This document shows, one piece after another, positions 59,801 to 64,000 of a stretch of 64,000 nt of DNA. The stretch lies in assembly GCF_988242995.1 (NCBI RefSeq), contig NZ_OZ547044.1; one strand, 5' to 3'. The position numbers are program-made. The DNA comes from a plasmid. Positions within the stretch are counted from its first letter, which is position 1, and the number at the start of each line of letters is the position of its first letter.

Positions 59801-62800
59801 TCTTTCAGACGTGATTTTCTGACCACAATCACAGGGGCTTTTTTCTCGGTCATAAGGGACTCCGGGGGCAGTGTTGTCACCGTCTGATTATATCATAATA
59901 CCATGTTTCTGTTACGAATTATGTATCCGGAATGTCTTGTTTTTCGGGTTTTCAGATGCGCGGTGTACGAAACTATCAGGCTGTCGGTTTGTGGTTTTGC
60001 TTACTTTCGGACACACAGGCGGCATGGTGTACGTAATCGCTCGATTTCGGACACAGAAACGCTGTAGCCCCGCAATCCGAGGGTTCGCTAATAGCCGTCT
60101 GGTCAAAAAGTAGTCTTAGCGTAAGTTATTTTCCCTTTTCCAGGCGGCCCCCTGATGCGCGTAGCGCATGGGAGCGAAGCGATACGACCGCGCAGTATTG
60201 CGCGGGGTTTTTCTTTTCCGGCTCAGAAGTGAGTGAATCACTTAAGTCAAATGACCAGAAGCAGGTTAATACGGTAGTTCACCCCCCCTTCCTGCCAGAC
60301 AATAGCGGATTGTCAGTGTCACAGGAGGTTCTGTACGCGGTCGGAGTGGTCACGACAAGGCGCAGCCGCCGTCGGGGCGTATCTCCGCGTTAGCGGGCCG
60401 TGAGGGCCGCTTACGAGCGTGTTACTCAATACTTACAGCGACACTACTTACCGCGACGCACAACTATAGTTACAACACCCATCATTAAAAGCGACACTAC
60501 TCCCGGCCTTCGGCCGGGGGCGGCGGCGCTTTTCAGTGGTGGGGAGGGGCTCCTGGCTGGCAAACCGGCGCCGGTTTTATGACGGATTTCCTTTTGAATG
60601 CTGTAACTAATGTGGTTCTCTGGTCGGGGCCCGTCGCGAAGCGATGGGCGCTACTTTTATCTGAGCGACGCGGACGCTTGCGGCCGCTGTAAGCGAAGGC
60701 CTCACTGAGTTATTCACAGAGCCGGCAAAGACAAAAGATCTCCCTGCAGCTTGCAATGCAGGGGATTAAAAAAGTGGGGTAAGACTATTTTGCAGGTTTG
60801 CTGTTACCCTTTTGCTAAATTCCCTGTTTATTCATTTGCGGGTTTTTGTGGATAAGTGAAAACCTGGTGCGAACGTCACAGGGTATACGTGCTCAAACCA
60901 GCGATGGTCCGACGGCCGGAACGTCAGATGGATAAAAACCAGGCAATTTCATGAATCCGGACAAACGCCAAAAGCCCCGGGCAGGGGCATAGAAAAAATG
61001 GCACTGTTGCAAAGTTAGCGATGAGGCAGCCTTTTGTCTTATTCAAAGGCCTTACATTTCAAAAACTCTGCTTACCAGGCGCATTTCGCCCAGGGGATCA
61101 CCATAATAAAATGCTGAGGCCTGGCCTTTGCGTAGTGCACGCATCACCTCAATACCTTTGATGGTGGCGTAAGCCGTCTTCATGGATTTAAATCCCAGCG
61201 TGGCGCCGATTATCCGTTTCAGTTTGCCATGATCGCATTCAATCACGTTGTTCCGGTACTTAATCTGTCGGTGTTCAACGTCAGACGGGCACCGGCCTTC
61301 GCGTTTGAGCAGAGCAAGCGCGCGACCATAGGCGGGCGCTTTATCCGTGTTGATGAATCGCGGGATCTGCCACTTCTTCACGTTGTTGAGGATTTTACCC
61401 AGAAACCGGTATGCAGCTTTGCTGTTACGACGGGAGGAGAGATAAAAATCGACAGTGCGGCCCCGGCTGTCGACGGCCCGGTACAGATACGCCCAGCGGC
61501 CATTGACCTTCACGTAGGTTTCATCCATGTGCCACGGGCAAAGATCGGAAGGGTTACGCCAGTACCAGCGCAGCCGTTTTTCCATTTCAGGCGCATAACG
61601 CTGAACCCAGCGGTAAATCGTGGAGTGATCGACATTCACTCCGCGTTCAGCCAGCATCTCCTGCAGCTCACGGTAACTGATGCCGTATTTGCAGTACCAG
61701 CGTACGGCCCACAGAATGATGTCACGCTGAAAATGCCGGCCTTTGAATGGGTTCATGTACAGCTCCATCAGCAAAAGGGGATGATAAGTTTATCACCACC
61801 GACTATTTGCAACAGTGCCGATCTGGCGACTGGATCGTCTGAGCCGTTCCCTGAAAGACTTGATTGAAATGGTTAAACATCTGGAGTCGAAAGGTATCGG
61901 TTTAAAAAGCCTTCAGGAATCCATCGACACAACCTCCAGTTCCGGAATGCTGATATTTCATCTTTTTGGGGCACTGGCAGAATTTGAACGCAACCTGACA
62001 AGAGAGAGAACTCAGGCCGGGCTTCAGGCAGCACGAGCCAGAGGACGTAAGGGCGGCAGGCCGAAAACACTGAGTAAGGATAAACAGGCCCTTGCTGTTC
62101 AACTCTATAACGAGAAAAAACATACAGTTGCGCAGATTTGTGTGTTGATGGGGATATCGAGGCCAACGCTGTACAAATACATAGAGTCAGCCAGGTTGTT
62201 CAAGAAATGAACTTAGCGTACGTTTTCGTACGGTTGGGCTTCAAACCCCTCAGTCAATGACGCGGGAAGAGTATCTTTCTCTCTTCGCCAATGAAGCCGA
62301 TCGAAATATTGCCTACGACCCGGAACCCATCGGTCGCTATAACGTCGCCCCGGGTACCAGGGTGTTACTTCTGAGCGAACGCGACGAACAGCTGCAGCTC
62401 GATCCGGTTCACTGGGGTTACGCACCAGGGTGGTGGGATAAACCGCCATTGATTAATGCCCGGGTTGAGACCGCAGCCAGCAGCAGGATGTTTAAACCTC
62501 TTTGGCAGCACGGTCGGGCGATCTGCTTTGCTGATGGCTGGTTTGAATGGAAGCGTGAAGGAGACAAGAAGCAGCCCTATTTCATCCACCGTAAAGATGG
62601 CCAGCCAATCCTCATGGCCGCGATCGGAAGCACTCCGTTTGAGCGTGGTGATGAGGCGGAAGGGTTTCTGATTGTCACGGCCGCGGCTGATAAAGGTCTC
62701 GTTGATATCCATGATCGGCGCCCGCTTGTCCTGGTACCGGACGCCGCCCGGGAGTGGATGAAACAGGACGTTTCGGGTAAGGAGGCTGAAGAAATTGCTG

Positions 62801-64000
62801 CTGATGGAGCTGTGTCCGCTGATCATTTCTTATGGCATCCTGTAACGCGCGCTGTTGGTAATGTTAAGAATCAGGGACCAGAGCTCATCGAGGCTGTTGG
62901 CTTATGAGATGTCGGAGGCTGATCCGTGTTTTAAAGCTAATGTACGCATACATTAGCTTTAAAATTAGCCGTGCATCGTAACTAATTTCAATCATCAATA
63001 TGGACAGCTATCACGACAGGGAGATTTTAAAAGCTTCAGACTTATGCATTAAAAGCAGCGCAAGTCTAATAAGTAATTATCATATTGAATATATAATTCA
63101 TTTTTACAATTTATTATTGTTAGGCAGTAAAATTTAATTGTTGAATTTACCTATAAATAAAGATATTAATAAAATGTCTCCATTTTCAATAAAGGAACTT
63201 ATCATGAGCTGGTTTAATGACGTATTTGGATTCGAAGAATCAGACTATGCAGAGACTCAGGCTCGTTTTTTCCAGGAAGGCCCTTTTCTTCATACCAGAA
63301 GCCAGCCATCTGTTTCTTATCGTTCTGGTATTCTGACCATGCCGAGTCTGGCCGAATTAAGGAAAGCGGTCAGCAATCTTGTGACAGAACCGTATGGAAG
63401 GTGCAGATTTGACATACTTGAGGCTGATGCATATGACCTCCACCGAAAATCCGAAGTGAAGGGCGCGCTGATCCAGGTTGCCAGTCAGTTCAACTTACTC
63501 GAAATGCCATGTGAATATACAACGCCAGAAAAGGGGATTACCGATTACCAGTTTGATCATACTCAAGGACCTGCCTGCGCTATGGCCTGTGCTGCTGCCA
63601 CAGTATTTCGTAATTATCTTGTCCCGATGGGGTCACAGACTGGACAATCCACTACCAGCCAGCTTAACACGCTGGCTGATATGGAAAAGGCTATCGGCAT
63701 TGATGGCATACGAATGAAAAACGGGTATGCCCTGATGTCGGCTAATACGGTGCAGGCTATTAGCCGTTATATTGCATCGCTGGATGAGCAAATGCGGGAC
63801 AGGCTCAGACAGGAGTTACGCATCGGATTGCACTCAGATACTGAAGTCACTATACCAGGAGTACCTGAAGATCAGTTTGTGTCTCAGGCTCTCTGCTCTG
63901 CCTTACCTGTCGCGTATAACTCATCTCCCCGGGAAGAATGGGCTCCTTTTGCATCGCTGGTACTGGAAGCCAGTTACGAAGCAACGTTGCTGGCAGGTGT

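Follow-up and report, generated by a model that had tools for sequence, protein, structure and literature searches.

How did the C-terminal part of a transposon resolvase, a solitary Tn3-type terminal inverted repeat (IR) and an SRAP/YedK-like gene without its start come to lie end-to-end beside a copy of IS26, and does any part of this arrangement still work? The locus lies in a 64,000-nucleotide stretch of plasmid DNA (contig NZ_OZ547044.1; hereafter ‘the window’), which belongs to a pKPN3/pKpQIL-like Klebsiella plasmid of type IncFII(K)/FIB(K); here it bounds the multiresistance region on the right (features in Table 1). We consider it highly likely that this is a fossil junction, left behind when a p948-type transposon entered the SRAP gene and an IS26 event followed; an inert scar of single origin, carried passively by a successful plasmid lineage. 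A scan of positions 57000-64000 against Rfam gave no match to known RNA families.

Table 1. Features making up the junction, with positions in the window
Feature	Position	Strand	Details
IS26 copy 7	61000-61819	minus	820 bp; tnp26 ORF 61052-61774 on minus strand
Truncated tnpR for a 188-aa serine resolvase (residues 60-188 remain, stop codon included)	61820-62210	+	Pfam, tblastn
38-bp Tn3-family terminal IR, tnpR-proximal end	62212-62249	minus	outer GGGG at 62246-62249
5'-truncated SRAP/YedK-family gene	62250-62907	+	called ORF 62257-62907, 216 aa, from internal Met9
Putative 5-bp target-site duplication, TCAGT	62250-62254	+	nucleotides 18-22 of intact SRAP gene
For reference: left IR of the p948 element (3,870 bp), absent from the window			GGGGTCTGAAGCCCAACTGTACG

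The 430 bp between IS26 and the SRAP gene (61820-62249) share 99.5% nucleotide identity with positions 8001-8430 of L004 (from NC_017724.1), which hold the 3' end of tnpR and the right IR; the matched reference is a complete 3,870-bp tnpA-res-tnpR element on plasmid p948 of ETEC H10407 (NC_017724.1, ~70958-74827), encoding a TnpA of 1002 aa (WP_001110536.1; 1057 bits against NCBIfam transpos_Tn3) and a TnpR of 188 aa (WP_000904908.1). Translation of 61821-62210 yields 129 aa that match the Pfam Resolvase profile solely at positions 69-145 of 145 (E 3e-24), along with HTH_7 (E 3e-12), and the tnpR piece is therefore a C-terminal fragment. Its first residue corresponds to Ile60 of the full-length reference protein (residues 57-188 of which are matched by tblastn), and it is cut exactly where IS26 copy 7 ends. 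Having lost the N-terminal 59 aa, and with them the catalytic serine region, the fragment has no catalytic domain and is inert; the res site has also gone.

The tnpR stop codon falls one base short of the IR, whose minus-strand sequence, GGGGTTTGAAGCCCAACCGTACGAAAACGTACGCTAAG, occurs once in the window, where chance alone would be expected to produce none. Read in this orientation as GGGG...ACGCTAAG, it shows the length (~38 bp), the outer GGGG and the inner TAAG of Tn3-family IRs, and the complete element in NC_017724.1 has a right IR that agrees with it at 38/38 positions and a left IR that differs at 2/38. The left IR, tnpA, res and the 5' part of tnpR were sought across the window and none is present, so that where the p948 element is complete with two 38-bp IRs, the window keeps just the last 11%. 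With neither a ~1000-aa Tn3-type transposase at 61820-62249 nor the tnpA of this element anywhere in the window, the locus is a Tn3-family remnant and not a functional member; a lone IR makes its transposition impossible. The sequence-only reading had described a resolvase C-terminal fragment, a 38-bp Tn3-family IR and an element whose interior was lost with the involvement of IS26 copy 7, and had proposed comparing the IR with reference elements, which leads to p948. All of this stands (the interior is absent from the window and from the Klebsiella plasmids in PLSDB), save that the outer end of the IR lies at 62249 and not at 62250.

Neither PGAP names nor the literature searched (by IR string and by the p948 accession FN649418) gave a Tn number for the p948 element; PGAP labels its TnpA only as ‘Tn3 family transposase’, whereas the Tn5403 protein is named specifically. 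Among named elements, Tn3 and ISEc63 come closest to it, with tnpA nucleotide identities of ~68% and ~70% respectively. Tn3/Tn2 and ISEc63 (Tn3 subgroup) share with it the divergent arrangement tnpA <- res -> tnpR and 38-bp IRs of the type GGGG...ACGAAAAC...TAAG, but in contrast to them the p948 element carries no passenger gene, its tnpR ending a single base short of the IR, and this tnpR gave no DNA-level match to Tn3 or ISEc63. By reading alone, the TnpR protein looks closer to the Hin/Gin-type invertase-like resolvases than to Tn3/gamma-delta TnpR. The window also holds a Tn3-type tnpA fragment (16597-18654), to which the p948 TnpA shows 65% amino acid identity.

The other boundary of the remnant is set by the last of seven complete 820-bp IS26 copies in the window. 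Copy 7 has every hallmark of IS26, namely its length, 14-bp terminal repeats (GGCACTGTTGCAAA; 61000-61013 on the plus strand and 61806-61819 on the minus) and a DDE transposase of IS240/IS26 type (Pfam DDE_Tnp_IS240, E 2.5e-48), and it is identical to the other six or differs by 1-2 mismatches. It is not, however, flanked by an 8-bp target-site duplication (GAAAAAAT vs GATCTGGC), and thus marks a deletion or rearrangement rather than a simple insertion, as expected where IS26 has mediated a deletion, an inversion or a recombination. A comparison of the 8-bp flanks across the seven copies, in both orientations and with the aim of reconstructing a single inversion or deletion, gave zero matching pairs. 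To the left of copy 7 the DNA varies among plasmids: in NZ_CP018884 it carries catA1, and in the window it is FII(K) ori-region backbone, in inverted orientation. A simple inversion was considered for this backbone and rejected, as 45 bp are absent at the repA side with no reciprocal duplication, such that a single clean event is insufficient to explain it.

On the far side of the IR, the ORF belongs to the SRAP family (Pfam PF02586, E 6e-48; 437 bits against NCBIfam PRK09951, cut-off 349). It covers positions 10-222 of the PRK09951 profile, whereas an intact allele fills 1-222; the natural start of the family therefore lies upstream of this point. DNA homology to intact alleles begins at 62250/62251, the last base of codon 6 or the first of codon 7; with 62250 corresponding to nucleotide 18 of the intact gene, 17 nucleotides are missing (all of codons 1-5 plus the first two bases of codon 6). 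Intact alleles start MCGRFSQSM, and the gene in the window has lost MCGRFS. From 62249 to 63795 the window is 99.35% identical to NZ_CP087672, which carries an intact 224-aa allele (its positions 1825-2499) that reads ATGTGCGGACGTTTTTC-TCAGT-CAATG across the point of truncation. The missing 5' end was sought in the window and is absent, and no in-frame upstream start restores MCGRF, there being a stop codon at 62182-62184 and no ATG, GTG or TTG before 62257. The suggestion that the gene begins at about residue 10 was thus close with respect to its first usable ATG, Met9, but homology in fact extends back to codon 6/7; that the N-terminal Cys is missing is borne out by the alignment.

The loss matters for function. 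YedK of E. coli, a chromosomal rather than plasmid-borne gene product, is 83% identical to the ORF in amino acid sequence over residues 7-221, the alignment starting from Q7. Set beside YedK and human HMCES, SRAP proteins that form DNA-protein crosslinks at abasic sites, the window protein lacks Met1-Cys2-Gly-Arg-Phe-Ser. The α-amino and thiol groups of Cys2 form a thiazolidine crosslink to abasic sites in single-stranded DNA (ssDNA), and replacing this residue by alanine (C2A) abolishes DNA crosslinking by YedK (PMC6821365). Since this mutant cannot crosslink, the Cys2-less plasmid gene is very probably a pseudogene, in support of the earlier view that it is probably inactive; with Met1-Cys2 absent, a Met9-initiated product, if there is any, would be incapable of SRAP crosslink chemistry. 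The gene retains SRAP-domain similarity but not the invariant Cys2 after Met, and is a family member by descent, not a functional one.

Could a shortened protein, started at Met9, nonetheless still be made and retained for some purpose that does not need Cys2, such as binding of ssDNA or AP sites during conjugation, or interference with host YedK? The frame is open throughout its 216 codons, and the equivalents of YedK Asn75, Glu105 and His160 (invariant columns in an alignment of YedK and the intact plasmid allele) are kept, as are the DNA-binding Trp/Arg residues. YedK C2A still binds ssDNA, with a Kd of 7.9 uM compared to 2.2 uM for the wild type (PMC6821365), and the truncated protein is found, identical, on at least 1000 contigs, where annotation pipelines call it intact. 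Set against this, the deletion removes not only Cys2 but also the first residues of the fold and Arg4, which in YedK contacts DNA (R4A raises the Kd to 34.6 uM; PMC6821365). We found no sigma-70-like promoter on the plus strand in 61600-62257 and direct reading of the 15 nucleotides before the ATG at 62257 showed no purine run resembling a Shine-Dalgarno sequence. With an identity of at least 99% among all copies, the open frame is a mark of recent common descent and does not demonstrate purifying selection; its presence on so many contigs is compatible with recent clonal spread, and hitch-hiking on resistance plasmids fully accounts for it. In the transcriptome of the related plasmid pBIC1a, a ‘putative resolvase’ with low expression precedes hypothetical proteins; these entries could not be matched to this locus and carry no weight here. 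We regard a retained, Met9-started protein as very unlikely. More specifically, a Cys2-less protein arising from read-through transcription might be kept as a non-crosslinking binder of ssDNA or AP sites, for instance one that modulates host YedK or protects transferred single-stranded plasmid DNA; we hold this to be very unlikely, but if true it would give the HMCES/YedK family a naturally occurring separation-of-function variant.

Returning to the fossil junction, its anatomy suggests a history in which the 3.87-kb Tn3-family transposon would first have inserted into the SRAP gene between nucleotides 17 and 22, duplicating TCAGT. IS26 would then have entered tnpR at codon 59/60. An adjacent deletion, an inversion or recombination between IS26 copies would next have separated from this site, and so lost, the left IR, tnpA, res and the 5' 177 nucleotides of tnpR, together with nucleotides 1-22 of the SRAP gene. 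The scar would have arisen once and thereafter been carried passively by the plasmid lineage. Where the sequence-only reading had the transposon end replacing the start of the SRAP gene, the junction itself is real, but at least two steps are called for, not one replacement.

Such a history predicts a left junction in which the left IR is preceded by SRAP 5' sequence, ...CGTTTTTCTCAGT, and, at the lost IS26 junction, a tnpR 5' side reading ...CTGGTGATCTGGC. A chimeric query representing the complete element inside the SRAP gene returned 0 PLSDB records with coverage of at least 80%; the predicted left junction (GGACGTTTTTCTCAGT+GGGGTYTGAAGCCC) had 0 matches in GTDB representative genomes and JGI metagenomes, and JGI metagenomes again gave 0 when the pattern was relaxed to TCAGT followed by the IR. 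As none of these three collections yielded the missing half of the insertion, we infer the order of events, and likewise the 5-bp duplication, which follows from the known Tn3-family mechanism and of which the window would have one copy.

That this other half has never been observed in PLSDB, GTDB representatives or JGI metagenomes could also be taken to mean that the SRAP 5' end was lost without any transposon insertion, for example through an IS26 deletion that reached a pre-existing neighbouring transposon end. However, the SRAP sequence directly abuts the outermost base of the IR, leaving zero DNA in between, as transposon insertion would do, and the breakpoint of an IS26 deletion would carry IS26, not a Tn3-type IR; a Tn3-family adjacent deletion from the IR end is formally possible and would give the same end state. 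Loss without insertion thus appears highly improbable. That the remnant derives from Tn5403, the usual Tn3-family transposon in reports on such Klebsiella plasmids (including pKPN3-307 and pKPSH11-type plasmids; PMC7319535) and, like the p948-type element, a passenger-less tnpA/tnpR element, can be dismissed with near certainty, as Tn5403 does occur in the window but sits there intact at ~31731-35540, its proteins in pKPSH11 have different lengths (TnpR 201 aa and TnpA 965 aa, vs 188 and 1002 aa for the element that owns the IR), and the two TnpA proteins are only 28% identical; a likely mis-assignment of the remnant is thereby corrected.

With insertion followed by an IS26 event as the preferred history, the distribution of the junctions is that of a scar spread with its plasmid. 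The IS26-tnpR junction is present in 210 PLSDB plasmids and the IR-SRAP junction in 215, the carriers being almost all pKPN3/pKpQIL-like Klebsiella plasmids; Klebsiella accounts for 470 of the 580 matching PLSDB records. The part comprising res and the 5' end of tnpR, by comparison, occurs in only 44 PLSDB plasmids, from Escherichia, Salmonella and Pantoea, and in zero from Klebsiella. The same IS26-tnpR-IR-SRAP module is seen in the IS26-bounded resistance regions of pKPN3/pKPSH11/pKpQIL-like IncFII(K) plasmids (~210 plasmids), and pKPSH11 is 96.8-100% identical to the window in most blocks. Compared with these plasmids nothing at the locus is distinctive, variation being confined to what lies left of IS26 copy 7.

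As a scar of a textbook mobile-element kind, the locus is of low novelty and raises no new biological question; the value of the finding is mainly practical. On those at least 1000 contigs the 216-aa product is treated as intact in RefSeq (WP_015065500.1) and UniRef, under the name ‘SOS response-associated peptidase / abasic site processing protein’; lacking the catalytic Cys2, it warrants a pseudogene flag, and the adjoining 129-aa ‘recombinase family protein’ annotation likewise describes a fragment. The IS26-tnpR-IR-SRAP junction itself serves as a clean marker, of single origin, for where the resistance region of pKPN3/pKpQIL-like plasmids ends on the right, useful both for plasmid typing and for reconstructing IS26-driven rearrangements.

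The locus at 61820-62907 joins a Tn3-family transposon remnant, itself abutting IS26 copy 7, to an SRAP/YedK-like gene that lacks its start. The resolvase frame covers the Pfam Resolvase catalytic domain only at profile positions 69-145 and carries a complete C-terminal HTH_7 domain; measured on the 188-aa resolvase of the 'p948 element', a complete transposon on ETEC H10407 plasmid p948 (NC_017724.1), residues 60-188 are kept and the N-terminal 59, active-site serine region included, are missing, bearing out the C-terminal fragment proposed from sequence alone. At the DNA level 61820-62249 shares 99.5% identity with the terminal part of this element, and the terminal IR, which is identical to its tnpR-proximal IR, occurs once in the window, with zero matches to the 38-bp pattern in shuffled sequence.

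Layout of the locus 61820-62907 (read directly and by pattern searches) and other Tn3-family features of the window
Feature	Coordinates	Strand	Remark
Solitary 38-bp Tn3-family-type IR (GGGG...CG[CT]TAAG)	27414-27451	-	after tnpA fragment 26216-27400
Tn5403 tnpR (intact copy)	31912-32517	-	
Tn5403 tnpA (intact copy)	32612-35509	+	
Solitary 38-bp IR, same pattern	58658-58695	-	inside conserved FII(K) backbone
Solitary 38-bp IR, same pattern	60115-60152	-	inside conserved FII(K) backbone
IS26 copy 7	61000-61819	- (transposase)	seventh complete 820-bp copy within window
Resolvase open frame	61821 to TGA 62208-62210	+	begins right at IS26 copy 7 end; 129 aa
38-bp IR	62212-62249	-	minus-strand sequence GGGGTTTGAAGCCCAACCGTACGAAAACGTACGCTAAG; one base past resolvase stop
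SRAP/YedK-homologous DNA	from 62250	+	first in-frame start ATG 62257; stop 62905-62907

The p948 element spans 3,870 bp between two 38-bp IRs, mutually different at two positions, and encodes a 1002-aa Tn3-family transposase (NCBIfam transpos_Tn3, 1057 bits) and the resolvase in divergent transcription; complete copies are found on plasmids of E. coli (mostly ETEC), E. albertii and Salmonella. Tn5403, reported in this plasmid group (PMC7319535), can be ruled out, as the transposase of the IR-owning element is only 28% identical to that of Tn5403, which in pKPSH11 encodes a resolvase of 201 aa and a transposase of 965 aa, the latter named specifically by PGAP. Among named elements in E. coli genomes, Tn3 (~68% in tnpA) and ISEc63 (~70%) are nearest by DNA, with tnpR matching neither at the DNA level, and PGAP and UniRef entries are generic. 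Given these relatives, the generic names and the exclusion of Tn5403, we describe the remnant as part of a Tn3-subgroup transposon that has no passenger genes and no assigned name, identified through its complete p948 relative; a literature search found no specific Tn name.

Tn5403 itself is present in the window, as an intact copy at ~31731-35540 (the same as that of pKPSH11, 100% identity) and as a second copy at 40202-43141, cut by IS26 copy 6 (99.9% identity over 2,940 bp), into whose tnpA a long ORF (39611-43108) reads from a start inside IS26. A further Tn3-type tnpA fragment (16595-18655), with both edges exactly at IS26 copies 2 and 3 and 100% identity to pKPSH11, corresponds to residues 133-818 of the p948-element transposase (65% identity over 16597-18654). 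The two solitary IRs in the FII(K) backbone look like remnants left long ago by other Tn3-family elements, since that backbone is shared with pKPCKP060.

The SRAP ORF (Pfam SRAP, E 6e-48) shares 83% identity with E. coli YedK, in an alignment beginning at the equivalent of YedK Gln7. The N-terminus used for YedK there, its first five residues included, is also that of intact plasmid alleles in their sequence records, two of which (plasmid records L001 and L008) start with MCGRFSQSMTREEY. The intact allele of NZ_CP087672, 99.35% identical to window 62249-63795, reads ATGTGCGGACGTTTTTC-TCAGT-CAATG around the junction, and by this comparison the window is without exactly the first 17 nt (~6 codons) of the gene; TCAGT at 62250-62254 is a probable 5-bp target duplication. 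Because no upstream in-frame start is present (stop at 62182-62184; zero ATG, GTG or TTG before 62257) and intact alleles are longer at the N-terminus (NCBIfam PRK09951 profile coverage 1-222, against 10-222 for the window ORF), the gene can be read neither as starting further upstream nor as belonging to a family that naturally starts here.

The upstream neighbourhood of SRAP genes on plasmids is variable, the intact gene coming immediately after a gene of the GIY-YIG nuclease family in NZ_CP021720 and NZ_CP020050 (1787-3654) and lying ~970 bp downstream of IncFII repA in NZ_CP087672. Directly downstream of the SRAP remnant (63204-64000 and beyond) is a gene for a 331-aa hypothetical protein (WP_019725651.1 in related plasmids) with no NCBIfam match, linked to intact and truncated SRAP alleles alike, e.g. 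in NZ_CP087672.

In PLSDB, 210 plasmids carry the IS26|tnpR junction and 215 carry the IR|SRAP junction, each at 100% identity and nearly all from Klebsiella; the res/tnpR-5' part of the element is found in only 44, none from Klebsiella, and the complete element lies inside an SRAP gene in none. The predicted left junction is also absent from GTDB representative genomes and JGI metagenomes. This pattern agrees with one ancestral pair of events and clonal spread thereafter. The transposon interior was probably removed by an IS26 event, which may have been an adjacent deletion, an inversion or a recombination. The sequence-only reading, that a Tn3-family end had replaced the gene's start up to about residue 10, is confirmed as an observation and supported overall as an interpretation, with three corrections: the outer end of the IR is at 62249, not 62250; the missing part is the 17 nt; and the loss needed at least two steps.

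In YedK and HMCES, Cys2, exposed through removal of Met1, reacts through its alpha-amino and thiol groups with C1' of the abasic site to give a thiazolidine ring; crosslinking by a C2A mutant does not rise above background, and Arg4 has a part in DNA binding (PMC6821365). The Arg4 equivalent is also lost here and, though alignment shows equivalents of Asn75, Glu105 and His160 to be kept, the family-defining crosslink reaction is impossible for a product that has lost Cys2. A promoter search of the plus strand from IS26 to ATG 62257 returned no sigma-70-like site, and direct reading found no Shine-Dalgarno-like motif in the 15 nt ahead of it (TCAAACCCCTCAGTCA); we infer that the truncated gene would be inactive.

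Since IS26 copies 1 and 7, in inverted orientation, enclose the whole ~51-kb resistance region, the locus is its right-hand boundary, where the backbone resumes (in pKPSH11 with SRAP, hypothetical genes, then ars and pco). The region at 10365-61819, with seven complete IS26 copies and an isolated IS26 end (11434-11447), has been pieced together by IS26-mediated events; an 8-bp target duplication is missing from every copy, copy 7 included, and no flanks are shared or matching among the seven. DNA to the left of copy 7 varies by plasmid (catA1 in NZ_CP018884). Here this DNA (56153-60999; ori region, ProQ/FinO-family gene, DUF2913 gene) belongs to the IncFII(K) backbone and would ordinarily be found just downstream of repA (9374-10364); it lies ~46-51 kb from repA, inverted relative to it and with 45 bp missing at the repA side, and this displacement points to IS26 having inverted the resistance region in whole or in part. 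Relative to pKPCKP060, repA has lost its final 29 bp together with 16 bp of downstream DNA, and the frame (9374-10381) extends 17 bp into IS26 copy 1 (10365-11184), so the RepA C-terminus is altered and supplied by the IS26 end.

At least 1000 contigs have an entry for the truncated 216-aa SRAP protein and 394 have one for the 129-aa resolvase fragment, both under database names that imply intact proteins. The locus is an ordinary scar left by mobile elements, present in hundreds of public plasmid sequences under generic annotation, and its consequences are practical only: a correction of annotation and use as a lineage marker.
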